From: an uncultured Gemmatimonadales bacterium
GTDB taxonomy: Bacteria; Gemmatimonadota; Gemmatimonadetes; Gemmatimonadales; Gemmatimonadaceae
Length of the DNA stretch: 64,000 nucleotides
Assembly: GCA_963850905.1 (NCBI GenBank)
Contig: CAWKMU010000003.1
Span: 1,504,001 to 1,568,000, forward strand
Direction: 5' to 3'
Part shown: positions 27,940-56,094 of the stretch, piece after piece
How positions within the stretch are numbered: position 1 is the first letter of the stretch
How the letters are laid out: each line of letters opens with the position of its first letter
Notes under the pieces: generated by a model
Told to the model about the DNA's origin: nothing
Database searches by the model: none
Seen by the model: only the letters and a program-made list of their open reading frames with translations
Made by a program: the position numbers and the translations under genes

Positions 27940-27944
27940 TCTGG

Positions 27945-27996: not shown

Positions 27997-28051
27997 TACA
28001 GTTGTGTCTCACAATCTAGCGCCGCGTCAGCCAGCACTCAACGGCGGATCG

Positions 28052-28396: not shown

Positions 28397-28499
28397 CTGC
28401 GATAAAGGCAAACCCGGCGAAAGCCGGCGACGCAAAGCTACGAGGCTACCGTGTGTGCCTGGTCGACGCGCACACCATGCCAGTCGAGCCGCCGAACAG
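28397..28499 (+). ncRNA. c-di-GMP-I (GEMM) riboswitch 1
   Basis: GGCAAACCCGGC-GAAA-GCCGGCGACGCAAAGCTAC, receptor GGCTAC/ATGCC, distal stem GTGTGTGC/GCGCACAC, 3' GCCGCCGAA. Confidence 0.92.
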
Positions 28500-33594: not shown

Positions 33595-33651
33595 GCTAGT
33601 TGTCCGGTGCAGTTCAAGTACGCTGACCTGACCTCGTTGTTCAGGGCATCC

Positions 33652-34896
33652 ATGCGCGTGCGCTACCTCCCCCCAGTTTCCTCGCCGACCTGCTTCCGCG
33701 CGTTGACGCGTGCGGCGGTGGAGGCGGCGTGGCCGGAAAACGGCGGCAAGGCGAGTGGTGCCGCGTCGGATCGGGTCGCCGCGGCGTTGCGGGAGCGTTT
33801 TGGAGCGACGGCGATCGCCCTCACGGACAGCGGCACGTCGGCGCTGGTGATCGCGCTGCGCGCGATGGTGCGAGAGGGTGGGGCGGTGGCACTCCCGGCG
33901 TATGGGTGCGTGGACCTGATTGCCGCGGCGATCCGCTCAGGCGCGCGGGTCCGGCTGTACGATGTCGATCCCGGCACCCTGGGGCCTGACTTCGATTCGA
34001 TGCGGCGGACTCTGACGCGTGGAGTGGACGCGCTCGTCGTCACGCACCTGTACGGCTATCCCGTCGACATGGCCGCGGTGCGCGCCGTGACAGACGCGGC
34101 CGGTGTGCGGGTGATCGAGGATGCGGCGCAGCATGCAGGTGCCCGCTTGGGCGGTGTGGCAGTCGGGTCGAGCGGGCCGGTGACTGTGCTGAGCTTCGGT
34201 CGCGGCAAGGGGACGACGGGTGGTCGCGGCGGGGCGCTGTTCGCGACCAGGGCGGCGGACAAAGTTCTTGCGACGACGATCGAGGCGTGGGCGCGCGTAA
34301 ATGGTGCACAGGCGCGCGCGAACGGGAACGGGGCGGCTCGCGGGGCGGAGGTAGCCGGGTGGCGCGATGTCGGCCAAACCGCGGCCCAGTGGGCGTTTGG
34401 CCGTCCGTGGCTGTACGCGATCCCGGCGTCGATTCCTATGTTGGGGCTTGGACAGACCGTGTATCGGCCGGCGGGCGAGCCGGGGCGCCTCTCGCGCGCG
34501 GCAGGCGCGTTGGTGGAGCGGGCGTTGGCGCGGGTCGACGCCGATCGCATCTGTCGGTCGCAGCGCGCGCGGTGGTATGCGGAGCGTCTCTCTGGCGTGT
34601 CGACGCTGGCGCTCGTGCGCTCGATCGCTGGCGCGGAGCCGGGCTACCTCCGTCTCCCCGTGTTGACGGCGGTCGCGAATGACCCCAATCGCATCCCCGC
34701 GCCCAAGCTCGGCATCGTGCGCACCTATCCACTGCCCCTTGGTGAAGAGCCTGCCGCCGCCGCCGTGCTGCAGGTCGGGGAGCCAGCGATGCCTGGCGCG
34801 CGCGCGATTTGCAGTCGGCTTTTCTCGTTGCCGACACACGCGGCGGTGACGGATGCCGACGCCGAGCGCATTGTGGAGTGGGCGACGGCAACATGA
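33652..34896 (+). CDS. DegT/DnrJ/EryC1/StrS family PLP-dependent protein
   Basis: SGTSAL, THLYGYP, IEDAAQ, SFGRGK..GG.GG, LPTH. Confidence 0.85.
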   Translation: MRVRYLPPVSSPTCFRALTRAAVEAAWPENGGKASGAASDRVAAALRERFGATAIALTDSGTSALVIALRAMVREGGAVALPAYGCVDLIAAAIRSGARVRLYDVDPGTLGPDFDSMRRTLTRGVDALVVTHLYGYPVDMAAVRAVTDAAGVRVIEDAAQHAGARLGGVAVGSSGPVTVLSFGRGKGTTGGRGGALFATRAADKVLATTIEAWARVNGAQARANGNGAARGAEVAGWRDVGQTAAQWAFGRPWLYAIPASIPMLGLGQTVYRPAGEPGRLSRAAGALVERALARVDADRICRSQRARWYAERLSGVSTLALVRSIAGAEPGYLRLPVLTAVANDPNRIPAPKLGIVRTYPLPLGEEPAAAAVLQVGEPAMPGARAICSRLFSLPTHAAVTDADAERIVEWATAT

Positions 34897-34950
34897 TCTG
34901 CGGTCAGAGGGGTTTGTGGTGGCCCGTGACAGAGCCAGCCTGACGAGTCC

Positions 34951-36687: not shown

Positions 36688-36785
36688 GGACTGTATCTCA
36701 TGGGGCGATGGCAAGCCAACGGCTGCATTGGGCGAGGCCTCGCGTACACTCGGCAGATTATGAGTGGGCGCCGGCGTGTCGACGA

Positions 36786-38519
36786 CTAGCGCGTCAGCTT
36801 GAAGAGAATGGCCCAGGGCGTCTCAGCGACGACGGGGAATTCACGTCGCATGTCGGTCTCGAACGTCGGACGCTTGGCGAGTGCTCGCCGCTCGACAATG
36901 AAGTAGCGCGCGCCGCGGCGCATCAGGGCATGCACCTCCGGTAGTGTATGGTCCTGCACGCAAGGGCTGAACCCTTTGTGGTCCGTCCAATAGAAGTACC
37001 ATGGATGCTCGTACGCAGACTCCGTCGGTGAGATGCAGTCGCCGCCGCTCGAGACGATCAGCACACCAGGCGGCATGAGCGGCGCGAACATGCGAGCGGT
37101 TTGGTATTCGGGGACCGACCGGCTCGTCGAGTGGCGCTCGGCGTAGGTGATCCTGGCGGTGGACAAGAGTGCGACTAGTACCAGAGAGGCGAGCGCACCT
37201 GTTGCCAGTGCCTTCGCCATGAGCGGACGGCGGTTGCGTGAGGGACGAGGCATTATTGTCACCAGGGCGCCTCCTGCTGCAGCCGCAATCAGAACTGCGG
37301 TCCCCGCTGCTTCGACGACGTGGTTCGCAACGACGAACGCGATCGTTGCGCACAGCGCGACGGCGCCTGCCATGCGACGACTTCTGGAGTCGAGGTCCTG
37401 GAAACGCAGTGCCAAGACCGCACCTGTCCACCCGACCAGCAAGGCCACGGGTGGAACTGAAACAATGTGATAGTACGTTCCCCAAGCGAACGCACTAGTG
37501 CCGGCAATGACGAGATAGTAGACGAAGACGGCACCATACCAGAACAGACCGTAACCCACATCGGACGGCCGCGGCCCGATGGCGATTGCCAGAGCTACCG
37601 CCAGCACACCCGCTAGCGTCCAAACGAAATGGACGTCGATGCCGATGATTGCCGGGATATAGGACGGGTCGGTGAACGTGGTCAGCCCGACGAAGTGGTG
37701 ATGGTTGGAGACGCCCAACGAGTTGCCATAGGCGAGCCAGAACTCGCGGGCGTGTGCGTACCACAATGCAGGGGGCAGGATTGCGGCCAGCGCGAAGGCC
37801 CACAAGCGGGCACTCTTCAGGATCGCTGGCCCTCGGCGCCACAGCGCGAGCATGGCAAACGCCAGTCCCACGTGGGCTGCGGGAGCCTTGGCGAGTATTG
37901 CGAACGAAGTGAGTACAAGCGCAGTCCAATACCAACGCCAGCGATTCTCCTGCAGCCAACGGACGAAGGCGTACATCGCGCCCACGTAGCCAAGTAGCAT
38001 GAACGGCTCTGGCTGGATCGTGGTCGCGAGTCGGACGGCGATCGGGTTGAGCGCAAAGAACACACCGGCAGCAATCGCTCCGGGTGGCGGAAGCAGATAG
38101 GCGGCGAGTCGCGTGAAGAGAAACAACGTGAGCAGCGCTGCCACGTAGGACAGCACTCGACCGATTTGCTCGTGAAACCCCACGATCTTATAGCCGACCG
38201 CGATCAGGTACGGGTAGATCGGAAACTCCATCTCCACGTATCCCGGACCATCGCCGCGCCAGTCTATCCGGGGCGACCGAATGTCCATGCCCTCGCGGGC
38301 AAAGTTGCGAGCGATCGCGGCTACGTCTGTCTCTCGCCAGATCTCCCAATCTCGTCCATCCAAGGGATGCCAGAGATTCACTGCGTTTACGGCGGCTCCG
38401 AGCAGGAGGATGGAGATGAGTGCTCGCCAGGAGAGGCGGCCACGGCCGATTCCGCGAGGTGGCGCCGAGCGGAGTGGCCGGGCCGCCGGTTCAACTGGTG
38501 TGGCGGCAGCGGCAGTCAC
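36786..38519 (-). CDS. GT-C (ArnT/GT83-like) glycosyltransferase
   Basis: WRETDVAAIARNF, MEFPIYPY, QPEP, LAK; multi-pass. Confidence 0.8.
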   Translation of the reverse strand: MTAAAATPVEPAARPLRSAPPRGIGRGRLSWRALISILLLGAAVNAVNLWHPLDGRDWEIWRETDVAAIARNFAREGMDIRSPRIDWRGDGPGYVEMEFPIYPYLIAVGYKIVGFHEQIGRVLSYVAALLTLFLFTRLAAYLLPPPGAIAAGVFFALNPIAVRLATTIQPEPFMLLGYVGAMYAFVRWLQENRWRWYWTALVLTSFAILAKAPAAHVGLAFAMLALWRRGPAILKSARLWAFALAAILPPALWYAHAREFWLAYGNSLGVSNHHHFVGLTTFTDPSYIPAIIGIDVHFVWTLAGVLAVALAIAIGPRPSDVGYGLFWYGAVFVYYLVIAGTSAFAWGTYYHIVSVPPVALLVGWTGAVLALRFQDLDSRSRRMAGAVALCATIAFVVANHVVEAAGTAVLIAAAAGGALVTIMPRPSRNRRPLMAKALATGALASLVLVALLSTARITYAERHSTSRSVPEYQTARMFAPLMPPGVLIVSSGGDCISPTESAYEHPWYFYWTDHKGFSPCVQDHTLPEVHALMRRGARYFIVERRALAKRPTFETDMRREFPVVAETPWAILFKLTR

Positions 38520-40123
38520 GGCTTGGCCCCGGCCGAAAGCGTCGCTCGCGGTGCCCGGGCGCTCAGATCATACAGTCGTGCCCACGCCCCCGTTGCGACG
38601 ATCGAGTCTCGTGGTTGTCCAATCGTCGACACGTAGTCGGCGAATGATGCTGGTGATTCGAACTGCGACCCCCACATGTAATGCGAGGCTATGATCCACA
38701 CGCGGGCGTAACCGCGGTACGCGTCCAAACGCGATCGAGCACAGCTGCCGGTATCCACTCTTGTCAGAGGGATACCGTAACGGTCAGCGTAGAATTGAAA
38801 CGGGACCTCCGCATTGCAGTAAACGTAGATGATGTCACCCGGCTGGCGTGCAACGGCGAGCTGCGCGACAACAGGGCGGAGATCCTCGTATACGCCTGTC
38901 GGATTGCGGGCAAACGACACGATCGGGGACACCAGCAGTGCCGAAAAGGCTGCGATTGTCAGCGCAGAGCCGAGTTTCCACGCGTCTCGGGCGAGACTGA
39001 TCGCCGACGCGATCGCAAGCACGATGAGCGGGGCAAGGAACAGCGCGAGGCGACCCTCTAACGGGTAGGCGTGTAGAGCCGACGCCCCAAGCGCAAAGAT
39101 CAATGGTAGAACCGCGGCAAGGCCCGCGGCACGGGATCGTCTGAGTAAGACCACGGCCCCGATCGCCCCAATCACTGCAACGAGCAGCGGCAGCGGCACC
39201 GCGACAAATTCAGCGACGAGGTCGCGGGCGAGCCGAGCGAGCCAGGTTGCATCGTGAAACGATCGAGGGCGAATGGGGAAGAACCCTGCGGCCCAGTACT
39301 AATGCATGCCCGCGATGAGCGATGAATCCGTCCGGCGTCGAACGTCGAGAATAGCGGCTCCTGCGCTTACGCCCCACGCTGCACCGAGGGTGAGCAAGCG
39401 CCATCGGTCGTCGCGCCGCTCGTGCCATCCGTGAACCACGGCGACAGCAGCTGTTGCGGCGAGCCCAAATACGGCCGTAAACGAGAGCCAAGGCGCGATC
39501 AATCCCCCGAGGGCAAGGGCGCCCCAACGAGTGCGGCTCGGGTGGTCGGCAACTAACACTATCGCTGCTAGTACGAGCACTACAGCCATGAAGACATCAA
39601 ACGCGTACGGTTTGACCTCCGCAGAGTAGTACACAAGCGGCGGTGCCACCGCGAAGAGCGCGACCGCTCCCACTGCGACCTCGGGAACCAAAAACTTTGC
39701 GAGTCGGGCAAACAGTACCAGAGCAGCCAGGCCGGCCAGGAGTGGCCAGAACCGGAGCGCAAGCTCGCTCGGTCCGAACATCGTCACGCTCAATCGCTCG
39801 AGCTCCACGAACCCGAGTGGTGCCATCTGCCAATAGTCCAAAGGATCGTGGGCGAGTTGAGTCGCGGAGTGCCGCACGAAGCTCTCGCTCAGGAATGCCT
39901 CGTCAAGCCAGAGGGAACGATCGCCGAAGTACTGCACCAAGCGCAGCACGATCCCAACTGTGACGGCCACGCCAATGAGACGCGACTGGTCGATCCATGG
40001 CCGTAGCCCGTTGGTTTGTGCCAACGGCCCCGATGTACGGGGGATCGCGATTGGAGGGTGCTCGTCCAGTACGTGCTTCGAGCCGGCAGGCAACGGTTGA
40101 CCGCTGCCGATCTCACCTGGCAT
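38516..40123 (-). pseudogene. GT-C membrane glycosyltransferase interrupted by one in-frame TAG (39299-39301)
   Basis: RSLWLDEA, SELALR, YSAEVKPYAFD; reads GMH*YWAAGFFP and continues in the same frame to YPLEGRLALF and EDLRPV. Confidence 0.8.
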
Positions 40124-40928
40124 TTGGTACCGCGCCGTCCCGAGAGCGGTAGCGCATTCTCAGACGCAGCAGATCAATGCCGGACCGAACGAAATCGAAG
40201 AATTTTACCTTTGAACCGCTCACGTCGCGCCATTCCCGAAGCGGGAGTTCTACGACCTCGTGTTCGGCATCAATGCCACAAAGACACTGCAACCGCGCGA
40301 GCATCTCCACGTCAAACGACCAGCGCGAGAGAAACGGAGATTCGAGCACGCGAGCCAGCGCAGAATCGACTCGGAAGAGCTTCGCCCCGCACTGGGTGTC
40401 GTAGACTGGAAGCCGCAGCGTGAGGGACGCAGCGGTTGCGAACACGCGTCCGGCGTAGTGCCGACGCGCGCGTCGGTCGATGGACCTGCCGAGGAGCCGG
40501 ACGCGCGCGCCAATGATCCAACGAAACTGGGGCGACGTCTCCATCACGGCCAGGAAGTCCTGCACGGCATGCAGTGGTGTGGCTAGGTCGGCATCCCAGA
40601 AGCCGGTGTAGCGGTACCCCGCGCGGACACATTCGAGCATGCCCGCTCGCACCGTCTCGCCTTTCCCCTGATTTCGCGGCTGCCGGAGCAGCGCGACGCG
40701 AGGTGCGAGCTCGGCGCTCAGTGATTCGATGAGTGCGACCGTTCCGTCCGTGCTGCCGTCATCGACGAACAGGAGATCCACGTCGGTCTGGGCCGTGATG
40801 AACGCCCGGATGCGCGGGGTGTCGAGTCGCGCGGCTTCGTTGTAGCAGGGGATGACGATACAGGTGCGCTCACCCAATGGTGACGGCGTGGCACGATCGG
40901 GTCCGGCCACTGCGTGACCGTCGGTCAT
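40113..40928 (-). CDS. GT2 polyprenol-phosphate glycosyltransferase (DPM/DPG synthase-like)
   Basis: VIPCYNEA.RL, FVDDGSTDGT, NQGKGE, FWDADLATP, YDTQCGAKLF, FDVE. Confidence 0.92.
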   Translation of the reverse strand: MTDGHAVAGPDRATPSPLGERTCIVIPCYNEAARLDTPRIRAFITAQTDVDLLFVDDGSTDGTVALIESLSAELAPRVALLRQPRNQGKGETVRAGMLECVRAGYRYTGFWDADLATPLHAVQDFLAVMETSPQFRWIIGARVRLLGRSIDRRARRHYAGRVFATAASLTLRLPVYDTQCGAKLFRVDSALARVLESPFLSRWSFDVEMLARLQCLCGIDAEHEVVELPLREWRDVSGSKVKFFDFVRSGIDLLRLRMRYRSRDGAVPNAR

Positions 40929-42790
40929 GACCTCTTGGGCCTCTCCACTCCTGGAATGCAGGGGCGCTGCTCGGCGGGGTGGCGCTCGTGCACCAGGTAC
41001 GCGACTGCGGAATCGCTGGGTGCGCCAGGCCGCTCGAGGGCTTCGGTCGCCAATCCGGAATCAGAGTCGATTCTTATCAAAGGCCAGCCGTTGTTGGCGA
41101 GGTGTGCCACGACGAGTCCCGAGTAGGAACACAACGGGCTCGACGCATCGCGGGGTGACGCACTGAGGTAGCCCCGTGCCTCGATGACCTGAAGGAAGTT
41201 GTATGTGTAAATGGCAAATCGGGGCGCACGGGGATCCAGGTATGCGGCCCGGTCCATGGGGAAGACGTACTCAATATCCGGGCGCTGTTGGTAGTGCAGG
41301 ATCGGCATGAAGTTGAGGAGGCTGGGCACGATGACGACGGCGTGCGGAGGTACCACCTTCTCGAGGCGAAGACCAGGGCGTTCGCCTGGATTGGCACTGT
41401 AGCCGGCCCAGATAGGGTATACGGCGAGCAGGGCAAACACGCTGGCCCAGACGGCCCGGAAGCGACGGTTCGATGGGGCGCGTGAGGCAGCGCTCTCGAT
41501 ATCATCGAACGCCGCGGTCGTGAGCTCCATCCCGTGTGCGAGGATGATGCTGATCCCGACCGCGGATGGCAGCATATACCGATCGACGAAGATCGGCATC
41601 ACCGCGTGCGACAGGAGGAACGCAGCGAAGGGCACACATACGATCGACGTGGCGACCACCAGCAACGGATCGTTCCTAGCCGCCGCGCGGAAACCACCCG
41701 CCCGGACGATCACAGACCCGAGTACCGCCAGCAGGATGACGAGCATGAGCAGACCACTGCTTTGCTTCAGGAGGTCACTCGTTGTTCCGCCGGTGTGTAG
41801 GAAGCGGAAGGGGAGCCAGCTGATGCCTGCTGCTGCAACCGCAATGCCGATGGCGGCGACGATGCGTTTTCGGTGCCCCGCGTCTACGATCCGACCCACT
41901 GTGGGACCACGCGTCGTGGCGAAGAAACCGCCGAGGGCAGACAGCAGGACGACCAGGATGACGACAATGGGCAGCCGGCGCATCGCGACGCCAAAGACTT
42001 CCATCAGGGCGCCCGGCGTCGGCGCCGTAAGCCACCCCTGGGGACGCGCCAGGTCAGCGGCACGTCGCAGGGACGGCAGCCACGGAATGAAGGTGGCCCA
42101 CCCCGCAAGGATCGCGGCATAGCTCGCCGGACGCCATCGACCGGCGCAGCGATCCGCGATGACCCAGGCGGCCAGGATCGCCGCGCTGTACATCGCCCCG
42201 TACACGTGTGTGTATACGAGCGCGGCGTGCGTCGCGAAGATCGCGGCCAGCAGCTTCCACGACGTTCGCTCGGGCGTGAGAACGGCACGAGCGTACAAGT
42301 ACGTCGCGAGCGCGACGAGGGCGGTGAGGAATCCGTAGAAGCGGGCTTCGGAGACGTGGTACAGCACGAGCGCCGACAGTGGGAACGCGACCAACGCGCC
42401 AACAGCGGTGGCCTGGAGCGAGTATCGGCGACGGAGTGTCAGCCAGACGAGGACGAGGGCGACGATCATCATCGCGCAGGAGGGCGCACGGAGCGCGAGC
42501 TCACTCTGGCCGGCTGCGCGCGCCCAGAGCCAGAGGAGTGTGTGGTAGAGCGGTGGCGCGCTTTCGCCGCCTGCGGCGATCGTGCCGATCATGTGTGAGA
42601 GCGACGGGTCCGCCACGAGGTTCGCGGAATTGACCTCGTCGTACCAGAAGAATTTTTTTCCGGACGTGAGCACCGAGCAGACTGCCAGCGACGTGGCGGT
42701 GATGCCGAGCAACGCCCAGTCACCCCGACTCCATTGGTCACGAGTCGGAGGAACCATCTCGTCGTGTGCAGCTTGTGGCGGGGTGGGCAT
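40925..42790 (-). CDS. GT-C membrane glycosyltransferase-like protein
   Basis: FWYDEV, PPLYH, SELALRAPS, SEARFYG, YTHVYG, FVDRYMLP. Confidence 0.78.
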   Translation of the reverse strand: MPTPPQAAHDEMVPPTRDQWSRGDWALLGITATSLAVCSVLTSGKKFFWYDEVNSANLVADPSLSHMIGTIAAGGESAPPLYHTLLWLWARAAGQSELALRAPSCAMMIVALVLVWLTLRRRYSLQATAVGALVAFPLSALVLYHVSEARFYGFLTALVALATYLYARAVLTPERTSWKLLAAIFATHAALVYTHVYGAMYSAAILAAWVIADRCAGRWRPASYAAILAGWATFIPWLPSLRRAADLARPQGWLTAPTPGALMEVFGVAMRRLPIVVILVVLLSALGGFFATTRGPTVGRIVDAGHRKRIVAAIGIAVAAAGISWLPFRFLHTGGTTSDLLKQSSGLLMLVILLAVLGSVIVRAGGFRAAARNDPLLVVATSIVCVPFAAFLLSHAVMPIFVDRYMLPSAVGISIILAHGMELTTAAFDDIESAASRAPSNRRFRAVWASVFALLAVYPIWAGYSANPGERPGLRLEKVVPPHAVVIVPSLLNFMPILHYQQRPDIEYVFPMDRAAYLDPRAPRFAIYTYNFLQVIEARGYLSASPRDASSPLCSYSGLVVAHLANNGWPLIRIDSDSGLATEALERPGAPSDSAVAYLVHERHPAEQRPCIPGVERPKRS

Positions 42791-43064
42791 GCTGACGTCA
42801 ATTGGCCGTGATTCCAGCCACTTGCAAGGTCTGTTGCAAGATGCCGGCCCGCGTCCAAAGCGTGGATCACACCTGTGGGGCTGCGCGGCCGCCCCTTACC
42901 AATTCATCAAACGACGCTATGTGTTTGCCGATGGTCACGCGACACGCAGCCGCGCACCAGCACCGAGGAAGCGGCGTGGTGCGCTCGCCTGGCGTACAGC
43001 TTCTAGCCGGCAAGGCCCGAGACCTGCAGCCAACGGCACTCGTGAAACGGTGTTCTCACTGACG

Positions 43065-43565
43065 ATGTCTCCTGCGTCACCGCGTCCGCTGCGCGTGCTT
43101 TTTCTGTGCACCGGAAATGCTGTTCGCAGCCAGATGGCTGAGGCGCTGCTCAACTACAAGGGGCGAGGGCGATTTCGGGCTGAGAGTGCCGGATCGACGC
43201 CGACGGCGTGCGTTCATCCGCGTACAGTCGAGACGTTGCGCCAAGGGGGCATCGACTGGGAAGGCCGAACGCCGCGAGCCGTGAAGGGGCTCGAGGGCGA
43301 ATGCTGGGATCTCGTGATAACGGTGTGCGATCGAGCAATGGAATGCTGCCCAGTGTTTGCTGGTCACGCGGTGATCGCGCATTGGGGCATGGACGCGCCG
43401 GTGGATGTACAGGGGCCGGAAGACGAGCAGCAGCGAGCTTTTCAGGCCGCATTGGCAACGCTCTCGCACCGGATAGACCGGTTGGTCGGATTGCCGATCG
43501 AGGGACTTGATCGTTCCGTCCTCGCGGAGCATTTGCAAGTGATCGGCACCGAGGAAGAGGGTTAG
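43065..43565 (+). CDS. arsC: Thioredoxin-type arsenate reductase (LMW-PTP fold)
   Basis: VLFLCTGNAVRSQMAE, SAGS, ITVCD....CP, HWG. Confidence 0.8.
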   Translation: MSPASPRPLRVLFLCTGNAVRSQMAEALLNYKGRGRFRAESAGSTPTACVHPRTVETLRQGGIDWEGRTPRAVKGLEGECWDLVITVCDRAMECCPVFAGHAVIAHWGMDAPVDVQGPEDEQQRAFQAALATLSHRIDRLVGLPIEGLDRSVLAEHLQVIGTEEEG

Positions 43566-43938: not shown

Positions 43939-46863
43939 ATGCTGACAAAGCGACGAAAGACGAGACGTCAACTTGATGTCCAGCATCAAGTGTCAGCAGC
44001 ACGCGTGTACTGGATTACCGGATTGTCGGGCGCTGGCAAGACGACCGTTGGACGCGAGTTGGTGAAGCGCCTGCATGCGGCTGGTCGCCCAGTCATTTTC
44101 CTCGACGGCGATGCGTTGCGCGCGGCGATCGCGGAAGATCTCGGCCACACTGCTGCCAACCGCCGTCGATCGGCAATGCGCAACGCGCGGCTGTGCCACT
44201 TGCTTGCTGCACAGGGTACGGACGTCGTGTGCGCCACGATCTCGCTGTTGCACGAGGTCCAGCGGTGGAATCGGGAGAACATCCCCGGCTATCGGGAGAT
44301 CTACCTTCAGGTCCCGATGGAGGAGTTGCGGCGTCGGGATAGCAAGGGCATCTACGCCCGGGCCGAGTGTGGCGATGCGCGTGACGTCGTTGGTCTTGAC
44401 GTGCCCGCGGAGGCTCCGGAGGCGCCCGATCTGGTCCTCGACAATTATGGGGCGCTCGACGTTGTGACGGCGGTCGAGCGCATCTTGGCGGTATGCGGCA
44501 CGCCGAATGGCAAGCGTGCTGGAACGCCCCTGACGCGTGTCGTCGCGTTCAAAACGAAGGCAGAGTCGTTGGAAGCGCTGGCGCCCGTGCTGCGGAATGG
44601 GCGGGTCCTGCCACAAGTCCGATTCTCCGTTGCCGCCTGGCGCTCGGACGCCGCTGGCGTGTTGGCTTCGATCAATGCGGCGCCGTGGGGTTCGGGTTCC
44701 GTCATCGTGCGGAGCAGTGCACGGAGCGAGGACGGCGCCACGAGCTCTCAAGCCGGGAAGTACGATTCCCAACTCGGCGTCGCCGGCATCGAGGCAGTGG
44801 CACAGGCCATCGACCGGGTGGTTGCCTCGTTCGCAGACGAGGGCGATGACGACGACCAGATCTTCGTGCAGCCGATGCTCGACCGCGTCGCCATGGCCGG
44901 AGTGGCCTTCTCCCGCAATCCCAGTGGTGGCGCCTATTTCGTCATCAATTACGACGACCGTTCCGGGCTCACGGATCGCGTGACGGCCGGCGTCGGGTAC
45001 AATCTCGAAACTTTTTTCTGTCTCAAATCGCGTCCGGAGGCGTGCCCGGCTTCGCTGGTGCCGGTGATCGCGCTCGTGACCGAGCTCGAGAGTCTCCTAG
45101 CGTGCGACGCGATCGACGTGGAATTTGCGATCGGCGAAGACGGGCAGTTGTACCTGCTCCAAGTCCGCCCGCTCCTCGTGGACCGCCGGGGACAGGTGGC
45201 CGACAAGGAGATCGACGCCGCAGTCGCCGATGTCGCGCGCAAAGTCGAGCTCCTCAGCCGCCCGCACCCGTACCTGCACGGCAGCCGGACGATATTCGGG
45301 GTCATGCCGGACTGGAACCCTGCCGAAATCGTCGGAGTGCGGCCCTATCCCCTCTCGTTGTCGCTCTATCGCGAGCTGATCACCGACGCGATCTGGGCGT
45401 ATCAGCGTGACAACTACGGGTACAAGAACCTTCGCAGTTTCCCGTTGCTGGTGAGTTTTCACGGACTGCCGTACATCAATGTGCGTGTGAGCTTCAACTC
45501 GTTCATCCCACACGACGTCCCCGACGATCTCGCCGGCCGGCTGGCGAACTACTACATCGACCGACTCCTTGCCGAGCCGCATCTCCACGACAAGGTCGAA
45601 TTCGAGATCATCTTTTCCTGCTACACGCTCGATTTGCCGAAGCGAATCGCGACGCTCGCCGAGCACGGGTTCTCTTCGGACGACGTGGCCGAGCTCTCGA
45701 CCGCTTTGCGGCGTCTCACCAATCGGATCATACACGGCGACACCGCACTGTGGCGGCGGGATCGCGCCAAGATCGACCTATTGGCACAGCGTCTTCCGGT
45801 GATCTGCAACGCCGACATCGACAAGGTCGGCCGCATCTACTGGCTGATCGAAGACTGCAAGCGATACGGCACGCTACCCTTTGCGGGTCTCGCGCGGGCG
45901 GGTTTCGTCGCGGTCCAGCTGCTCCAATCGTTCGTCGACGTGGGCGTTTTTAGTGCCGATGAACGTGCGACATTCATGGCGAGCGTCGATACCGTCGGAT
46001 CGCGGATCGGGCACGACTTTGCGCGTCTTCCCAAGGCGGACTTCCTCGCGCGCTATGGCCACCTCCGGCCGGGCACGTACGACATCCTATCTCCCCGCTA
46101 CGACGAGGCACCCGACCTCTATTTCGACTGGTCGAGCGCGCGACCGACGTCGCCCCCGCCGCCTCGTTTCGCCCTGTCGATCGAGCAGCTGCGCCGCATC
46201 GAGCACCTGCTCAAGGAGCACGAGCTCGACATCGACGTCTTGAGCCTGATCGAGTTCATCAAGGCCGGCATCGAGGGTCGCGAATACGCGAAGTTCGTCT
46301 TCACGCGCAGTCTGAGCGACGCGCTGACGTTGATCAGGCGGCTGGGCGAGGATCATGGTCTGTCGGCGGAGGATTGCGCGTTTCTGAGTTACGATGCCAT
46401 CCGCACGCTCTATAGCGAGAGTTGCTCGGTGCGAGAGGCGTTGCTGGAGAGCGTCGCCCACGGCCGGGAGCGGCACGCGCTCACACGAAGTCTGGTACTG
46501 CCGCCCCTCATCGCGTCGGCAGAGGATGTGTTTGCCTTTCACCTGCCGCCGAGTCAGCCCAATTTCATTACGCGCAAGAGCGTTACCGCGCCGGTGGCGT
46601 CGCTCAGCGACCCTCCCGAAAGCTTCGCCGGACGCATTCTGTTCTTGCCGAGTGCAGATCCGGGCTTCGACTGGATCTTCACGCGTGGCATCAGCGGATT
46701 CGTCACGCAATTCGGCGGCGCCAACTCACATATGGCGATCCGCGCCAGTGAGCTCGGCATCCCTGCGGTGATCGGGGCCGGTGAGGCCATGTATCAGCCG
46801 TGGAGTGTCGCGCACACGCTGTGTCTGGACTGCACGAGCCAGAGGGTTTTGGTCATCGCATGA
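43939..46863 (+). CDS. Fusion of an APS-kinase-fold cytidine diphosphoramidate kinase (Cj1415-like) and an L-glutamine kinase (Cj1418-like)
   Basis: N-terminal WITGLSGAGKTT, LDGD, RRDSKGIY; then TKAESLE, IVRSSA..ED....S.AG, LLQVRP, GVMPDWNPAEI.G, HDKVEF, YGHLRPGTYDI, ADPGFDWIF, GGANSHMAIR; start may be GTG 43990. Confidence 0.85.
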   Translation: MLTKRRKTRRQLDVQHQVSAARVYWITGLSGAGKTTVGRELVKRLHAAGRPVIFLDGDALRAAIAEDLGHTAANRRRSAMRNARLCHLLAAQGTDVVCATISLLHEVQRWNRENIPGYREIYLQVPMEELRRRDSKGIYARAECGDARDVVGLDVPAEAPEAPDLVLDNYGALDVVTAVERILAVCGTPNGKRAGTPLTRVVAFKTKAESLEALAPVLRNGRVLPQVRFSVAAWRSDAAGVLASINAAPWGSGSVIVRSSARSEDGATSSQAGKYDSQLGVAGIEAVAQAIDRVVASFADEGDDDDQIFVQPMLDRVAMAGVAFSRNPSGGAYFVINYDDRSGLTDRVTAGVGYNLETFFCLKSRPEACPASLVPVIALVTELESLLACDAIDVEFAIGEDGQLYLLQVRPLLVDRRGQVADKEIDAAVADVARKVELLSRPHPYLHGSRTIFGVMPDWNPAEIVGVRPYPLSLSLYRELITDAIWAYQRDNYGYKNLRSFPLLVSFHGLPYINVRVSFNSFIPHDVPDDLAGRLANYYIDRLLAEPHLHDKVEFEIIFSCYTLDLPKRIATLAEHGFSSDDVAELSTALRRLTNRIIHGDTALWRRDRAKIDLLAQRLPVICNADIDKVGRIYWLIEDCKRYGTLPFAGLARAGFVAVQLLQSFVDVGVFSADERATFMASVDTVGSRIGHDFARLPKADFLARYGHLRPGTYDILSPRYDEAPDLYFDWSSARPTSPPPPRFALSIEQLRRIEHLLKEHELDIDVLSLIEFIKAGIEGREYAKFVFTRSLSDALTLIRRLGEDHGLSAEDCAFLSYDAIRTLYSESCSVREALLESVAHGRERHALTRSLVLPPLIASAEDVFAFHLPPSQPNFITRKSVTAPVASLSDPPESFAGRILFLPSADPGFDWIFTRGISGFVTQFGGANSHMAIRASELGIPAVIGAGEAMYQPWSVAHTLCLDCTSQRVLVIA

Positions 46864-47462
46864 AGGCCGTGGCCGTCACCCAGCGGGTAACGATCGTTCC
46901 AGCCTATGGCGAGCGCCGTGACTCTTTGGATCAAGCATGGACGAGGTTCTTGGCTGCCTGCGGACTGCTTCCCGTGTTGCTCCCGAATGTCACCGAGGTG
47001 GCGCTGGCCATGTGCGAGAGGGCGGGCATCGGCGGGTTGTTGTTGACCGGAGGTAACGACCTGGCGGTGCTTGGCGGCGATGCCCCGGAACGCGACGCCG
47101 TGGAAAGTGCCCTGCTCGATCTGGCCGAGCAGCGTCGCCTGCCGGTCTTGGGTGTCTGTCGCGGTATGCAAGTGATTCAGCAGCGGTTCGCGGTTCAACT
47201 ACGGCGCATCGAAGGGCATGTGGCGCAACGTCAGGTGATCCGAGTCGACGGCGACTCACGAGAGGTCAACAGCTACCATTGCTTTGGCGCAGTTGACTCG
47301 AAACCGCCGCTCAATGTCTGGGCGGTCGCGGACGACGGCGTCGTCAAGGCGATCCGACATTCGACCCGACCCGTGACCGGGATCATGTGGCACCCGGAGC
47401 GCGTGGTCCCGTTCGCGCCGGCGGACGTGCAGCTCGTCCGACAGGTGTTCGGAGTCACATGA
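46860..47462 (+). CDS. Gamma-glutamyl-CDP-amidate hydrolase (Cj1417-like, class I GATase / peptidase C26)
   Basis: ERRDSLDQAW, LTGGND, LGVCRGMQ, VNSYH, GIMWHPER; ATGA overlap with the upstream gene. Confidence 0.85.
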   Translation: MKAVAVTQRVTIVPAYGERRDSLDQAWTRFLAACGLLPVLLPNVTEVALAMCERAGIGGLLLTGGNDLAVLGGDAPERDAVESALLDLAEQRRLPVLGVCRGMQVIQQRFAVQLRRIEGHVAQRQVIRVDGDSREVNSYHCFGAVDSKPPLNVWAVADDGVVKAIRHSTRPVTGIMWHPERVVPFAPADVQLVRQVFGVT

Positions 47463-48238
47463 TCCGCGCCGTGATCCTCGCGGCCGGCCGCGGCAGCCGC
47501 ATGGGCCATCTGTGTGATGACCGTCCCAAGTGCCTGGTCGAGCTCGGAGGCAAACGGTTGATCGAACGCCAGATCGCTGCGCTGCGGCGCGGTGGCGTAG
47601 ACGAGATTGGCGTTGTCCGCGGCTACCGCGCAGAGATGATCACCAGTCCGAGTCTTTCCTATTTCGCCAACGACCAATGGGCCGAAACGAACATGGTGAT
47701 GTCACTGGCCACGGCCGCTCGCTGGCTGCGGTCAGGGCCGGTCATCGTGAGCTACGCGGACATTTTCTATCGTAGCGAGCTGGTACGCAGCCTGGTCGCG
47801 GCTCACGGGCGACTGGTCGTCACGTACGACCGAGACTGGCGCCGGCTGTGGACGCGTCGTTTCGCCGATCCTTTGGCCGATGCCGAAACTTTTCGGACCG
47901 ACGGCGAAGGCCGGTTGCTGGAGATCGGCGGCAAGACGTCGCGCATCGAGGAGATTGAGGGGCAGTACATGGGCCTCTTGAAATTCACTCCACCAGCGTG
48001 GAGTGCGGTCGAGGGCTTGCTTGGTGTGCTCGAGACGCCGATTCGCGATCGGCTCGATCTGACAGGACTGCTGCGCCGGCTGCTGGCGGCACGCGAGCTC
48101 CCAATAGGGGCGCTTTCCACCGATGGTCAATGGGGCGAAATCGACAATCCGGAAGACGTAGCGTTGTACCAGCGCATGGTCACTGCAGGCGAGCTCCGCC
48201 TCGAGGAGACGTCTGACAGTGAGGTGATGCCACAATAA
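47459..48238 (+). CDS. CTP:phosphoglutamine cytidylyltransferase (Cj1416-like, LicC family)
   Basis: VILAAGRGSRM, PKCLV, WAETNM, VSYADI, DPL.DAETF, GQYMGLLKF, GEIDNPED; ATGA overlap. Confidence 0.85.
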   Translation: MIRAVILAAGRGSRMGHLCDDRPKCLVELGGKRLIERQIAALRRGGVDEIGVVRGYRAEMITSPSLSYFANDQWAETNMVMSLATAARWLRSGPVIVSYADIFYRSELVRSLVAAHGRLVVTYDRDWRRLWTRRFADPLADAETFRTDGEGRLLEIGGKTSRIEEIEGQYMGLLKFTPPAWSAVEGLLGVLETPIRDRLDLTGLLRRLLAARELPIGALSTDGQWGEIDNPEDVALYQRMVTAGELRLEETSDSEVMPQ

Positions 48239-48302
48239 TGGCGATGCGTTCCGAGCCCACCGTGACAACTTCCGACCAGAGGGGTTGCCAGTGTCAGTAA
48301 CG

Positions 48303-49070
48303 ATGAAACACGGCGATTTCACGCAGGTAGCCGGCGATTACGCCCGGTTTCGGCCGAGTTACGCGCCCCAGGTCGCGACTGCCATCCTCCGTTACGTCGG
48401 GCGGGACCCAGCCAGCATCAATGCGGCCGACATCGGCGCCGGAACCGGCATTTGGACGCGGATGCTCGCAGCGCAGGGTCTGCATTCCATCGTCGCCGTG
48501 GAACCAAATGCCAACATGCGTGCGCAAGGGATCGAGACCTCGCGGGGGAGCGACATTGTGTGGCGCGATGGTTCGGCCGAAGCGACGGGATTGCCGGACC
48601 GGTCAGCCGATCTTGTCAGTATGGCGTCGTCATTTCACTGGGCCGATTTCGACAAGGCCTGCGACGAATTTCACCGTATCCTGCGGCCGGGTGGCGTCTT
48701 CGTCGCCTTGTGGAATCCGCGTCTCATCGAGGTGAACCCATTGCTCGTCGAGATCGAGGCGCAGATCACGCGGCTCAAATCTGACGTGCGCCGTGTATCA
48801 TCAGGCCGCTCTGGCATCACCGAGCGGCTGACCGATATGCTGAGCGAGAAACCGCAATTCGCTGAGGTGCTGTATCTCGAAGGTAGGCACCGCATGTCCC
48901 AGACGCCGAATCAGTATCTCGGGGCGTGGCGCTCGGTGAATGATCTCCAAGTGCAATTGGGCCCTGAACTATTCCGGAAGTTCTTGGAATTCACCGAGGA
49001 GCGCGTGTCAGGTCTGACGGCTATCGAGACAACCTATGTGACCCGGGCCTGGATCGTGCGGCGCGCCTAG
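48303..49070 (+). CDS. Class I SAM methyltransferase (Cj1419/Cj1420-like candidate phosphoramidate O-methyltransferase)
   Basis: MKHGDFT, RPSY, DIGAGTG, VEPN, MASSFHW, WNPR, RVSSG, WRSVND; operon context. Confidence 0.8.
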   Translation: MKHGDFTQVAGDYARFRPSYAPQVATAILRYVGRDPASINAADIGAGTGIWTRMLAAQGLHSIVAVEPNANMRAQGIETSRGSDIVWRDGSAEATGLPDRSADLVSMASSFHWADFDKACDEFHRILRPGGVFVALWNPRLIEVNPLLVEIEAQITRLKSDVRRVSSGRSGITERLTDMLSEKPQFAEVLYLEGRHRMSQTPNQYLGAWRSVNDLQVQLGPELFRKFLEFTEERVSGLTAIETTYVTRAWIVRRA

Positions 49071-49181: not shown

Positions 49182-50213
49182 TCACCTACTCAGACGATAG
49201 CCGATATTCTCAATCCTTTTTTGGGTTTCCGCATTGAGATCATGCATAAAGCTTCTGAATCGAGGAACCTTCTCTTCAACAGCCAAAAAGCCGTACGGCT
49301 TGCTCCTCGGACGGGCCAGACATAGGCGGCTCACATCAAGATCGACTGACATGACTTCGACGATCTTAGAAAACTCCTTGACCGGATCGATCATGAAGTC
49401 CTCGAGCCGCAACGAGAGGGTCGCGGATCGGATGTAAAGCTCCGTCTCCTCAACAAATTCCGGGAACGACAAGAATGGCGGGCCTGGTGCGGCTGCGAAG
49501 AAACGCGGGTCCCCTTCGGCAAAGGCCTTGAATTCCGAAAAATTCTGGTCCAAATCGAGACACAGATCGTCAGCGTTTTTGTACACCTGCGTGATCCCGG
49601 GGACCATGGCTTTGTCGCGAACATACCTCCGCCAGAAGACCCAATTCGTCAGCAACGAATCCAGCGGGTGCCGGTAGACGAAGATCAGATCGGCAATGCG
49701 CGACTGGACCGCCTCCAATACACGGCTCGTCAACTCTGGCAACGCCTGAGCGCGAGACACGTATTTGATCGTGGCGTGTTCGGTGTAGATCATGGACGTC
49801 GGAAGTGGACGAAATCGCATCTCATGCCGGAGATATTTCGCCCGTTCGCCAATGTGCTGCAGCAGCAGTTCATAGACATACCAACGCCCACTGCCGAACA
49901 GTCCGACGAGATACGCTGTTCTGTCGTTCCCCGGATTATGGAGTTTCCAATACCAGTCCTTATTCACCAACCGGTGGCGAACGCTTTCCAGATGGTCGCG
50001 AGGGGTTTTGCGCGCGAATTCTGCCCAGTTCTCGCGCACGCTTCGCAATTTGTCTTGGCGCGATTTCCCGGTGAATCTGATGAGCCTTCGAAATACGGAT
50101 GGCCGCATCCGCTCCGGGCGGCCGCGAGCGCCCTTGTACGTTGATCTTACCCCTCCGTCATGGTCGACCCACGCCACGGCGTTCTTGGCCGACGGTGTCG
50201 TGTGGTCGCTCAC
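49182..50213 (-). CDS. Sulfotransferase-fold protein
   Basis: LVGLFGSGRW (PSB-loop-like), FVYRHPLDSL (3'-phosphate-binding-like), LRLEDFMIDP. Confidence 0.6.
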   Translation of the reverse strand: MSDHTTPSAKNAVAWVDHDGGVRSTYKGARGRPERMRPSVFRRLIRFTGKSRQDKLRSVRENWAEFARKTPRDHLESVRHRLVNKDWYWKLHNPGNDRTAYLVGLFGSGRWYVYELLLQHIGERAKYLRHEMRFRPLPTSMIYTEHATIKYVSRAQALPELTSRVLEAVQSRIADLIFVYRHPLDSLLTNWVFWRRYVRDKAMVPGITQVYKNADDLCLDLDQNFSEFKAFAEGDPRFFAAAPGPPFLSFPEFVEETELYIRSATLSLRLEDFMIDPVKEFSKIVEVMSVDLDVSRLCLARPRSKPYGFLAVEEKVPRFRSFMHDLNAETQKRIENIGYRLSR

Positions 50214-50619
50214 GGGCGTGGCCTCATGTCAGCCCGACCGGCCGCGGCTCCCTTTGCGCGGCCCCTTCTGGTGTCAACCATGCTCAGCCTCTCCGCACGT
50301 TTCGTGCAGGCGCAAGCGTGGGCGGAAGTCAAGCGAATACAAGTGGTTACGCCGTTTGATACCCTAATCACCTCGCGGAATATGCTGCATGAACCCCACA
50401 CGATCGATGGCGATGTGCTGCGCGCTCGCGCGCGCCATCGCGGAGCCTATCGACTGGTGCGCTTCGTCGCCGCGCAGCAGCCGGTGCCGCCCGACGACGC
50501 GTGCAGCGTCGTGGCAGGCACGACGCCGCTGATGCTGATCGCCGCTCATGCTTGTCACGCCGCGCGGATCGAGGAGACGCGTCGTTGCAGAGTGGCGACT
50601 CAATTGCCAGAGCGCGAGG

Positions 50620-51900
50620 ATGATGTTGCGAGAGGCCAGTAACCGGGGCGTGCTAGTCGGTGGTGGTGCGCCTGACGGTCCGTCATCACTCGTCAGGCGG
50701 GCCAAGCCGCTGCGGGTTCTCTACGTCGAAGCGAACGAGGATGGCACCGTCGGGGGGTCCCATCAACTTGTTTACGATCTCGCACGCAGTGTACCCCGAG
50801 ATCGCATCGATCCCGTCGTACTGTTTTATCAGAACAATGCGTTCGTGGACCGTCTGAGGAGCCACGGGGTCACTGTCCTGTTGTACGACCACTTGCGCGT
50901 GCGCGAGCGCGCGGTCAATGCAACTGGAGGGCTTTTGCGCAGGCGTGCCGAGCAGGTCGCCGCCATCGGGAGGCGCTTCCAGCTACTTCGTCAGCAAAAT
51001 ATCGGTCTGGTCCACCTGAACAATTCCCCGACCGTCGGAGTCGACGACTGGCTGCCGGCTGCGATATGCGCCAACACGCCATGCGTGGTCAACGCGGGCG
51101 GTCTGCTCGGTCGGGATCGTCGCTTCATCCATCGGGCCTTAACGCGGCGCTTTGCGCGGGTGATCGCTGTGAGCGAATACATGGCGGCCGCGCTCCGCGA
51201 GCGCGGTTATCCGGAACGCCAGATCGAATGCGTGAATCTGTCCGTCGACATCGCGCGGTTGCAATCGAGAGTCTCGGCGTCGCGGACCGAGATTCGCACG
51301 AGCCTGAACATACGGCCTGACCGAGTTGTCATCACGATGGTAGGCAACGTCCGACAGTGGAAAGGGCAGCATGTCCTGCTGGAGGCAGTTGAGCTGCTCC
51401 TGCCGGCGGTCCGGGAACGCGTCCATGTGCTATTCGCCGGCGCGGTGTCCGAGGCCGATCGTTCGTATTTCGCCCATCTGCAACAGATCGTTGAGCGCGC
51501 GCACCTGGGCGACAGAGTTCAGTTTCTTGGTGCCCGGGACGACGTTGCTGATCTCCTCGCCGCGTCGGATGTTGCAGTTCACGCGTCGATTCTGCCGGAG
51601 CCATTTGGGCTCGTAATCATCGAGGCAATGGCGCTCGGGACTCCGGTGGTCGCGGCGCGGCTCGGAGCACCGCGCGACATCGTAACCTCGGCATCGGGCC
51701 TGTTGTACGATCCAGAGTCACCACGCGAGTTGGCAGAGCGGCTTACAGAACTCGTGTTGGACGCGGACCTTCGAAAACGTTTGGGCAAAGGCGCGATCGA
51801 TCGAGCCAAGGATTTCGGAGTCGTGCGCTACATCTCGCAGATAATGGCCGTGTACGAGAAGGTAGCACCCGCGCGTGATGACGAGCGTCTGATCGTTTAA
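50620..51900 (+). CDS. GT4 glycosyltransferase
   Basis: GG.H, WKGQHVLLEA, FLGARDDV, PEPFGLVIIEAMALGTPVV. Confidence 0.92.
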   Translation: MMLREASNRGVLVGGGAPDGPSSLVRRAKPLRVLYVEANEDGTVGGSHQLVYDLARSVPRDRIDPVVLFYQNNAFVDRLRSHGVTVLLYDHLRVRERAVNATGGLLRRRAEQVAAIGRRFQLLRQQNIGLVHLNNSPTVGVDDWLPAAICANTPCVVNAGGLLGRDRRFIHRALTRRFARVIAVSEYMAAALRERGYPERQIECVNLSVDIARLQSRVSASRTEIRTSLNIRPDRVVITMVGNVRQWKGQHVLLEAVELLLPAVRERVHVLFAGAVSEADRSYFAHLQQIVERAHLGDRVQFLGARDDVADLLAASDVAVHASILPEPFGLVIIEAMALGTPVVAARLGAPRDIVTSASGLLYDPESPRELAERLTELVLDADLRKRLGKGAIDRAKDFGVVRYISQIMAVYEKVAPARDDERLIV

Positions 51901-52042: not shown

Positions 52043-52146
52043 CCGCGACAACGGCAAACCCGGCGAAAGCCGGCGACGCAAAGCTCTGGAGGCTACCGCT
52101 CACGCAGCAACACCGCGTGAGTCATGCCAGTCCGGCTACCGAACGG
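52043..52146 (+). ncRNA. c-di-GMP-I riboswitch 2
   Basis: GGCAAACCCGGCGAAAGCCGGCGACGCAAAGCTCTGGAGGCTAC..CTCACGC/GCGTGAG..ATGCCAGTCCGGCTACCGAA. Confidence 0.92.
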
Positions 52147-53910: not shown

Positions 53911-54013
53911 CCGCGACAACGGCAAACCCGGCGAAAGCCGGCGACGCAAAGCTCTGGAGGCTACCGCTCACGCACGCTGCCGCGTGAGCCACGCCAGTCC
54001 GGCTACCGAACGG
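53911..54013 (+). ncRNA. c-di-GMP-I riboswitch 3
   Basis: Near-identical to riboswitch 2, with a different distal loop. Confidence 0.92.
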
Positions 54014-55992: not shown

Positions 55993-56094
55993 CTGCGACA
56001 AAGGCAAACCCGGCGAAAGCCGGGGACGCAAAGCTACGAGGCTACGGTCTGCCCTCAGAGTCGGGCATGCTATGCCAGTCGGGCCGCCGAACAG
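55993..56094 (+). ncRNA. c-di-GMP-I riboswitch 4
   Basis: GGCAAACCCGGCGAAAGCCGGGGACGCAAAGCTACGAGGCTAC..TGCCC/GGGCA..TATGCCAGTCGGGCCGCCGAA. Confidence 0.92.

Follow-up and report, generated by a model that had tools for sequence, protein, structure and literature searches.

We analysed a 64,000-nucleotide stretch of a bacterial genome assembly (G000, 4.49 Mb, 82% complete; contig C3, positions 1504001-1568000), here called the window, which holds a four-gene operon of open reading frames (ORF1 to ORF4) and a convergent fifth gene, ORF5. The operon likely makes 3'-phospho-CDP-amidate, a cytidine diphosphate (CDP) compound with a phosphorus-nitrogen (P-N) bond, and ORF5 likely transfers the phosphoramidate group to a hydroxyl acceptor, probably a surface-polysaccharide sugar. 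We regard this reading as a whole as likely, and donor synthesis by the operon, judged from the identity of its genes, as highly probable. The operon alone is a further member of a known pathway, that for O-methyl phosphoramidate (MeOPN) in Campylobacter jejuni, and the interest lies in the transferase ORF5.

43939-46863, + strand: ORF1, 974 residues, a Cj1415-type nucleotide 3'-kinase (residues 18-184) joined to a Cj1418-type L-glutamine kinase (residues 202-973), from NCBIfam, Pfam, tree and residues
46860-47462, + strand: ORF2, 200 residues, a Cj1417-like class I glutamine amidohydrolase, predicted gamma-glutamyl-CDP-amidate hydrolase, from NCBIfam, best genome match and residues
47459-48238, + strand: ORF3, 259 residues, a Cj1416-like LicC-type cytidylyltransferase, predicted CTP:phosphoglutamine cytidylyltransferase, from Pfam, PDB and identity
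48303-49070, + strand: ORF4, 255 residues, a Cj1420-like class I S-adenosylmethionine (SAM) methyltransferase, from Pfam and identity
49182-50213, - strand: ORF5, 343 residues, a soluble orphan convergent with the operon and candidate phosphoramidate transferase, from predicted fold and co-occurrence

An earlier annotation made from the DNA letters (the sequence-only reading) had proposed a MeOPN precursor operon here, and most of its description held. Four co-oriented genes with open frames lie on the + strand at 43939-49070, ATGA overlaps join the first three (46860-46863 and 47459-47462), and the domain calls were recovered in Pfam (APS_kinase with PPDK_N and PEP-utilizers; Peptidase_C26/GATase; NTP_transf_3; Methyltransf_11), as was the phospho-histidine motif GGANSH, whose histidine is residue 931 of ORF1. 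The gap between ORF3 and ORF4 is 46-64 bases, and a TTG at 48285 would lengthen ORF4 by six residues. Enzymes resembling adenosine phosphosulfate (APS) kinase and phosphoenolpyruvate (PEP) synthase are both present and form one fused polypeptide. The fusion is not an assembly slip, because contigs of run X1, which may be the source sample itself, span 44110-45233 with no difference and no gap.

In C. jejuni, Cj1418 is an L-glutamine kinase, Cj1416 a CTP:phosphoglutamine cytidylyltransferase, Cj1417 a gamma-glutamyl-CDP-amidate hydrolase and Cj1415 a cytidine diphosphoramidate kinase. Together they make CDP-phosphoramidate 3'-phosphate, which one account calls the 'likely donor' (PMC11800397). 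For comparison we used a C. jejuni-type capsule locus (L101, 27.8% GC) obtained with a published cj1420 primer (PMC3907429), which gave 16 matches in metagenome loci, three with the cassette and 13 without any cassette gene. NCBIfam identifies its 625- and 612-residue proteins as O-methyl phosphoramidate transferases, its 200-residue protein as the hydrolase (328 bits), its 779-residue protein as PRK05849 and its 170-residue protein as PRK05541; over part of its length the 625-residue protein matches a C. jejuni record at 100% identity. Eight L101 proteins, rather than the whole C. jejuni proteome, were the targets of comparison and reverse search. The window genes are the best G000 matches of the Cj1415-, Cj1418-, Cj1417-, Cj1416- and Cj1420-like proteins, at 38, 40, 26, 36 and 40% identity, respectively. 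The Cj1418-like protein aligns with ORF1 over 787 residues, placing His931 opposite His737, a position that we take to carry the catalytic phospho-histidine. ORF3 is matched at E 3e-48 (next G000 match, E 3e-6) and has LicC (1jyk, E 6e-10) as its best PDB match. ORF2 is the sole G000 match of the Cj1417-like protein at E <= 1e-3 (E 7e-19) and stands in the same gene order; its catalytic triad is intact (Cys100, His178, Glu180), and its best NCBIfam model, NF045546 GCDPHdlase, scores 114 bits, under the cut-off of 250. ORF4 is matched by the Cj1420-like protein at E 1e-54 and by the Cj1419-like protein at 32% identity.

The two halves of ORF1 were assigned by family models and residues. Residues 202-973 score 925 bits against PRK05849 (cut-off 501; the L101 Cj1418-like protein scores 1169). 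A PEP synthase or pyruvate phosphate dikinase was considered for this part and rejected, as TIGR01418 reached 56 of the 740 bits needed, over short stretches and not along the full length with the pyruvate-binding barrel, and all PEP synthase cut-offs were missed. Residues 18-184 score 175 bits against PRK05541 (cut-off 127; 293 for the L101 Cj1415-like protein) and fall under the cut-offs of apsK (112 against 138.7 bits), PRK00889 and PRK03846. A quick tree of 91 rows has a split with an SH-aLRT support of 100: on one side stand the ORF1 kinase, 79 cassette kinases and the Cj1415-like protein, on the other nine true APS kinases and one unassigned long-branch kinase. Four sites are diagnostic: F, N, P and FT in 8-9 of the nine true APS kinases, they read H70, S78, L103 and V150-V151 in ORF1 and Y, M, M and VV in the Cj1415-like protein. 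The tree split, the diagnostic residues and the model cut-offs thus place ORF1 apart from true CysC and PpsA, and neither is the best match. All five relatives sought by best match and hidden Markov model (HMM) lie in the window, and the proposed equivalence to Cj1415-Cj1418 and Cj1420 stands, since family models, best matches, tree position and catalytic residues agree.

The likeness to the C. jejuni donor pathway therefore comprises four relatives at 26-40% identity, the order 1418-1417-1416, conserved catalytic motifs and a Cj1420-like methyltransferase. The window differs in its fusion, with the Cj1415-type kinase as the N-terminal part and the Cj1418-type kinase behind it, in having one methyltransferase instead of two, in its surroundings, a glycan region of Wzx/Wzy type where C. 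jejuni has a kps capsule locus, and in the transferase. No Cj1421/1422-type (NF058596, DUF2972) transferase gave a tblastn match at E <= 1e-3 in G000 (82% complete) or in 80 related loci, a set that here and below means the 80 with the best glutamine kinase matches out of 306 in species genomes; ORF5 matches neither of the two models. The sequence-only reading was thus well supported as far as 3'-phospho-CDP-amidate, but not in its transfer step, for which the likely transferase lies beyond the operon, at 49182-50213 on the - strand.

We propose the following route. By orthology, the C-terminal part of ORF1 very probably phosphorylates the amide nitrogen of glutamine via His931; ORF3 would add CMP from CTP to yield CDP-glutamine, and ORF2, on the same basis with weaker identity, would release glutamate to leave CDP-amidate. 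The orthologous N-terminal kinase of ORF1 would, with almost the same assurance, phosphorylate the ribose 3'-hydroxyl, producing a pyrimidine P-N analogue of 3'-phosphoadenosine 5'-phosphosulfate (PAPS). Given its predicted fold and its observed linkage to the operon, ORF5 quite probably takes up this donor in the way that sulfotransferases take up PAPS and moves -PO2NH2 to the acceptor with His146 acting as the base. Cytidine 3',5'-bisphosphate would be left over, to be recycled by a nucleotidase of CysQ type. The acceptor is probably a cytoplasmic precursor of a surface glycan, and we lean, with some reserve, towards O-methylation of the phosphoramidate by ORF4 with SAM.

ORF5 and ORF4 end 111 bases apart. 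Neither Pfam nor NCBIfam gave a match for ORF5, and it has no hydrophobic segment. A single-sequence model gave a predicted local distance difference test (pLDDT) score of 32, and a 140-row alignment was used instead, which gave a pLDDT of 93.7 and a predicted template modelling (pTM) score of 0.89. This model predicts a sulfotransferase fold. All Foldseek rows listed are sulfotransferases (best E 2e-5), the top 21 VIA rows have the sulfotransferase fold (Z 13.3, root-mean-square deviation 3.5, 197 aligned; first other fold Z 8.8), the ORF5 profile matches the sulfotransferase 22ga in the PDB at E 8.6e-6, and the Atlas neighbours include Sulfotransfer_1/3 clusters. Conserved in 134-140 of the 140 rows are G107, G109, R110, H146, R181, P183, D185, N190 and E271, and the conserved elements are a G107-x-G109-R110 loop, His146, R181-H-P-x-D185, [TS]189 and R269-x-E271-D272; R181 and [TS]189 are each kept in 137 rows.

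Compared with PAPS-dependent sulfotransferases (SULT7A1 5x2b, StaL 2ov8, Teg12 3mgc and the polyketide sulfotransferase domain 4gox), ORF5 shares the predicted fold at Z 12-13 and has an arginine and a serine or threonine at the 3'-phosphate site and a histidine at the base position, roles that we assume from the sulfotransferase family. It differs in sequence (9-18% identity), in lying, like all 38 close members of its family, under the Pfam Sulfotransfer cut-offs, and in its association with a P-N donor operon, in several genomes without a detected PAPS route. Its 5' phosphate loop also differs: the 5' phosphosulfate loop of sulfotransferases usually has a lysine, but in ORF5 it reads GLFG[TS]GR, which could suit a different donor.

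The Cj1421/1422-type proteins of L101 (2895-4772 and 4827-6665) have G253, R328-D-P-I and Y422-x-D in the sulfotransferase motif order. Their middle domain thus keeps a glycine loop, R-D-P-I and Y-x-D in the same order as ORF5, which suggests from motifs that they share its fold, but they are about 610 residues long against the 343 of stand-alone ORF5, and there is no significant sequence or profile match (hhalign probability 1%). The hhalign comparison is weak, because accepted sulfotransferase families score only 0.3-42% against each other.

At least 7110 protein clusters match the glutamine kinase part at E <= 1e-50 (8000 candidates scored), and the kinase domain is present in 116 of the best 120 matches; some are already named 'glutamine kinase' by JGI. 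Most of the 80 related loci belong to Acidobacteriota; Pseudomonadota, Planctomycetota, Actinomycetota and Vulcanimicrobiota are also represented, and identities are mostly 75-89%. Near the host the cassette is rare, being found in two of 41 relatives and two of 301 phylum genomes, G000 included; this patchy distribution among kin, together with the spread across phyla at such identity, points to horizontal spread. The grouping of the operon genes is not due to chance, because most of the 80 loci keep the partners: a 3'-kinase in 76-77, the hydrolase in 71, the cytidylyltransferase in 76 and a methyltransferase in 70. The 3'-kinase shares a frame with the glutamine kinase in 71 of the 77 loci that have it.

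Fifty of the 80 loci carry the ORF5 family, downstream and convergent as in the window in 44. A second family (Pfam Sulfotransfer_3), detected with an HMM built largely from those same proteins, is present in 14, of which 11 lack the ORF5 family, and two further sulfotransferase families add three loci (L080, L089 and L092), so that 64 of the 80 have a sulfotransferase-type gene. In 301 genomes of one class (that of G041), the ORF5 family was found in 12 and the glutamine kinase in 14, all 12 lying within the 14; leaving aside the centre genome, which was picked for having both, co-occurrence is 11 of 11. Nine pairs lie within 4 kb, and 287 genomes have neither. None of 300 further host-phylum genomes has the ORF5 family. 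In a FastTree of 91 glutamine kinases, from which four loci were omitted because of their short length, the kinases linked to the ORF5 family make up a single clade and the other families need 4, 2 and 2 changes, with all sulfotransferase-linked kinases and the Cj1418-like one on one branch apart from TagF-linked kinases. The independent support for linkage is therefore four sulfotransferase families and a few switches. Beyond these loci, an Azospirillum lipoferum plasmid bears the core genes, the kinase and a methyltransferase, along with two genes annotated with sulfotransferase domains. In L099, a metagenome locus of low GC, a single operon combines a CysQ-like gene, a sulfotransferase gene and a gene for a fused kinase and methyltransferase. 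CysQ-like genes occur in seven of the 80 loci, one inside the operon; those of G000 are only distant relatives (26-27%).

In four cassettes without the 3'-kinase the transferases are of TagF-like or CDP-alcohol type, and such enzymes use a CDP-linked donor as it is. TagF-like genes are found in the kinase-less cassettes of Vibrio, Roseovarius and G416 (two under the Pfam cut-off), and a CDP-alcohol transferase in that of Agrobacterium, in which no 3'-kinase is annotated. A strict rule that a 3'-kinase implies a sulfotransferase partner was rejected, being broken by G242 and L097. Several unusual architectures were also seen. The glutamine kinases of L096, L134 and L140 (1002-1069 residues), which belong to cassettes lacking the 3'-kinase, have an extra N-terminal nucleotidyltransferase-like domain (28% identical to ORF3 in L134), with a TagF-like gene beside them. 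On A. lipoferum 4B plasmid AZO_p6 (L095:8638-11178), an 846-residue protein ends in a Cj1415-type kinase (135 bits, above 127), and its N-terminal domain, which has no Pfam match, is sulfotransferase-like by motifs, making a kinase-transferase fusion possible. At L110:5729-8256 (low GC), the cytidylyltransferase gene is followed not by a 3'-kinase but by two other genes that, in our judgement, resemble phosphonate-pathway enzymes.

The proposed polysaccharide-locus setting was confirmed as Wzx/Wzy-type by family scans of the window and the next 20 kb. The nearest glycan genes are:

33607-42790: upstream glycan genes, namely a DegT aminotransferase, four PMT_2/GT-C membrane glycosyltransferase ORFs and a GT2 glycosyltransferase, from Pfam
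50548-51900, + strand: a GT4 glycosyltransferase, with which the polysaccharide region downstream of the operon begins, from Pfam

Glycan genes of the window comprise GT-C, GT2, GT4, DegT, deacetylase and epimerase genes, and the 20 kb beyond it hold GT4/GT2, Wzy_C, flippase, acyltransferase and UDP-sugar dehydrogenase genes. No kps family was found among the scanned ORFs of the window and the next 20 kb, so the locus does not have the position of a kps (ABC-exported) capsule. Elsewhere, two loci (L016:16274-18982 and L036:18194-20938 (-)) encode a methyltransferase, a low-complexity helical stretch, a GT2 domain and an ORF5-type domain in one protein of about 900 residues, an architecture that to us recalls polysaccharide chain-capping enzymes, and in G582 a lone copy of the ORF5 family sits inside a glycosyltransferase/flippase cluster.

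A number of observations weigh against our reading of ORF5 and its acceptor, and we consider them together with the alternatives. With the same donor and transferase, the acceptor could instead be a protein, a nucleic acid or some small molecule, and a role in defence against phages is possible. Among the 133 ORFs nearest to 30 of the 50 ORF5-type loci, scanned at E <= 1e-15, rhamnose, GT4 or capsule genes flank eight loci, or 10 with the two GT2 fusions, and the other 20 have no glycan gene among their nearest neighbours. The cassette of G002, of the same genus as the host, lies outside any glycan locus, and its sole ORF5-family copy is on another contig, also away from glycan genes; G000 itself has an ORF5 paralog (57%) at C3:684515-685378 (L014:9411-10625, -), between a phosphoesterase and an M23 peptidase and away from both cassette and glycan genes. 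Thus the suggestion that a surface glycan is decorated fits the window but not G002 or these 20 relatives. The patchy cassette, crossing phyla at 75-89% identity, is compatible with a non-glycan role too, and nine of the 80 loci fuse the ORF5-type domain to half of a BrxC-like ATPase (L018 (14504-17437, -), L030, L043, L044, L045, L056, L058, L065 and L068; also L137:6520-9426), in the order N-terminal half of the BREX ATPase BrxC (scoring up to 360 of the 400 bits that NF033441 requires), shared linker, ORF5-type domain. None of the 80 loci has the BrxC part outside such a fusion, and G000 has none. A family of 420-440 residues with a twin-arginine-like leader and metallophosphoesterase-like motifs, and so secreted in appearance, recurs beside the cassette in 18 loci (e.g. 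L016:14705-16015 and L044:2128-3426); it had no Pfam or NCBIfam match and no tblastn match in G000. The related kinase TalE, moreover, makes a small-molecule phosphoramidate (PMC6482885). On the other side, the window copy lies inside a polysaccharide locus, the GT2 fusions and the eight glycan-flanked loci point to sugars, one single-protein scan found no glutamine kinase relative in a viral collection, and no peptide ligase, exporter or talCD-like gene recurs among the cassette neighbours. We consider a non-glycan acceptor unlikely, if worth keeping in mind.

It is less likely still, in our estimate, that the operon makes the donor and ORF5 is not the transferase, the true enzyme being an unrecognised one elsewhere or the cassette a productless passenger in this host. 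Sixteen of the 80 loci have no detected sulfotransferase-type gene; seven of these end within 570 bases of the cassette and three have short or one-sided flanks, but six (L020, L054, L060, L063, L079 and L083) have long flanks and no partner detected, with Pfam scans covering some of their genes. In G002 the cassette and the only ORF5-type gene are on different contigs, and Campylobacter strains with cj1416-1418 and no transferase are reported to give no MeOPN signal (PMC3907429). The 50 ORF5 loci amount to about one inheritance, because the family maps to one kinase clade; and a 3'-kinase does not demand a sulfotransferase fold, because G242 (with a TagF-like gene and none of five queried transferase types) and L097 (with two unassigned proteins) have the kinase and no detected sulfotransferase. 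The Foldseek TM-scores are low (0.33-0.46), and HMM, phmmer, Atlas, hhalign and a 67-row profile against the PDB gave no demonstrated sulfotransferase match for Cj1421/1422. Against a bystander ORF5, all five frames are intact and active-site residues conserved, the ORF5 family comes only with the glutamine kinase in the class surveyed (12 of 12 genomes) and is missing from the 300 other host-phylum genomes, and it is repeatedly replaced by other families of the same fold.

A third alternative is glycan sulfation by this locus, unconnected with the P-N genes: the kinase domain would then act as an APS kinase, and ORF5 would be a sulfotransferase of the usual PAPS-dependent kind. The domain matches Pfam APS_kinase at E 2e-32, databases name homologues adenylyl-sulfate kinase, the structural matches of ORF5 are all sulfotransferases, and the Vibrio cassette adjoins cysD/cysN; that cassette, however, has no such kinase. 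The ORF1 kinase is under the apsK cut-off, groups with Cj1415, lacks the APS-kinase signature residues and belongs to a family fused to the glutamine kinase in most loci. In G000 (82% complete) we found no CysD, no Sat and no second APS kinase, and control queries matched. Of 15 further cassette genomes, five have CysD, four Sat and six neither; all nine with ATP sulfurylase keep a separate true apsK, and none of the other six does. These nine can make PAPS, which counts against our reading, and the absence of ATP sulfurylase is only suggestive because the assemblies are incomplete (G000 82%, G002 67%). We hold sulfation to be very improbable, and prefer phosphoramidate transfer by ORF5.

The host of the window is probably a soil member of Gemmatimonadota: the runs holding most of the window DNA are soil metagenomes, and the closest tree neighbour of both ORF1 domains is a Gemmatimonadales-titled record. 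No RNA run was among the listed holders of this DNA. The GC content of ORF5 (55.6%) and the operon (61-64%) is slightly below that of the genome contig (65.8%), a weak sign of transfer. A promoter and terminator scan gave no promoter-like and six terminator-like sites, a chance level, none of them between ORF4 and ORF5. Directly upstream of the operon (42582-43565, + strand) is an LMWPc (low-molecular-weight phosphatase/arsenate-reductase-like) gene, which is not a recurrent cassette neighbour; its true start is probably later, because Pfam LMWPc covers only ORF residues 172-301. One PMT_2-type membrane glycosyltransferase is apparently split (38516-39199 and 39299-40123, - strand; 274 and 227 residues) and adjoins intact paralogs of 577-621 residues. 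The window also has four c-di-GMP-I riboswitch aptamers on the + strand (28398-28497, 52043-52143, 53911-54010 and 55994-56092), three of them at the starts of Big_2 Ig-repeat genes (52124, 54036 and 56067), and a SAM-alpha riboswitch (27929-28003, - strand) upstream of a B12-dependent methionine synthase.

Related systems have been described. A Cj1416-1418-like cluster lies in a glycoconjugate region of Borg archaeal elements (bioRxiv 10.1101/2024.11.05.622173), and so resembles the window in holding the three core genes outside Campylobacter; the available text of that preprint describes no 3'-kinase fusion or sulfotransferase-fold partner. TalE, from phosphoramidon/talopeptin biosynthesis, is likewise a PPDK-like kinase forming a P-N bond, but it is less than 20% similar to Cj1418, acts on a dipeptide and works with an ATP-grasp ligase and a glycosyltransferase with no CDP activation, according to its description (PMC6482885). 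A 2022 review presents glutamine kinase as specific to C. jejuni (PMC9561416), orthologues are reported in 13 of 30 Campylobacter strains, and unmethylated phosphoramidate is reported in Xanthomonas and Shewanella lipopolysaccharide (both PMC3907429). One account assigns no function to Cj1419 or Cj1420 and reports that knocking them out left the capsule visibly unchanged (PMC11800397); a Cj1420-like methyltransferase gene is present in the window, but the 'O-methyl' of the sequence-only reading is unproven. Further literature was consulted (PMC6429109, PMC10971088, PMC13317227). Our literature searches found no paper tying the phosphoramidate pathway to sulfotransferase-fold transferases or to these soil phyla; primary enzymology papers may state the PAPS analogy.

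In Campylobacter the donor half is solved, but the product is still a 'likely donor', and the transferases Cj1421 and Cj1422 are known from knockouts, their deletion abolishing MeOPN (PMC11800397). Because ORF5 is a 343-residue soluble partner with a predicted sulfotransferase fold, the last transfer step becomes directly assayable. Our reading of ORF5 would also explain the odd 3'-phosphorylation, which turns CDP-amidate into a PAPS look-alike. We cautiously favour a broader view, in which bacteria have turned enzymes of the sulfotransferase fold to phosphoramidate transfer, 3'-phospho-CDP-amidate standing in for PAPS. This would be a complete parallel of sulfate activation with its kinase, transferase and CysQ-type clean-up, at least four families having been recruited and Cj1421/1422 making a fifth, and ORF5 would be a minimal soluble example. 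Many soil genes called 'adenylyl-sulfate kinase' or 'sulfotransferase' would then install phosphoramidate, some through glycosyltransferase or BrxC-like fusions. The glutamine kinase matches so many clusters, the nearest of them in Acidobacteriota, Planctomycetota, Pseudomonadota and other groups, that soil bacteria probably make P-N bonds commonly, under annotations that often name sulfur metabolism instead.

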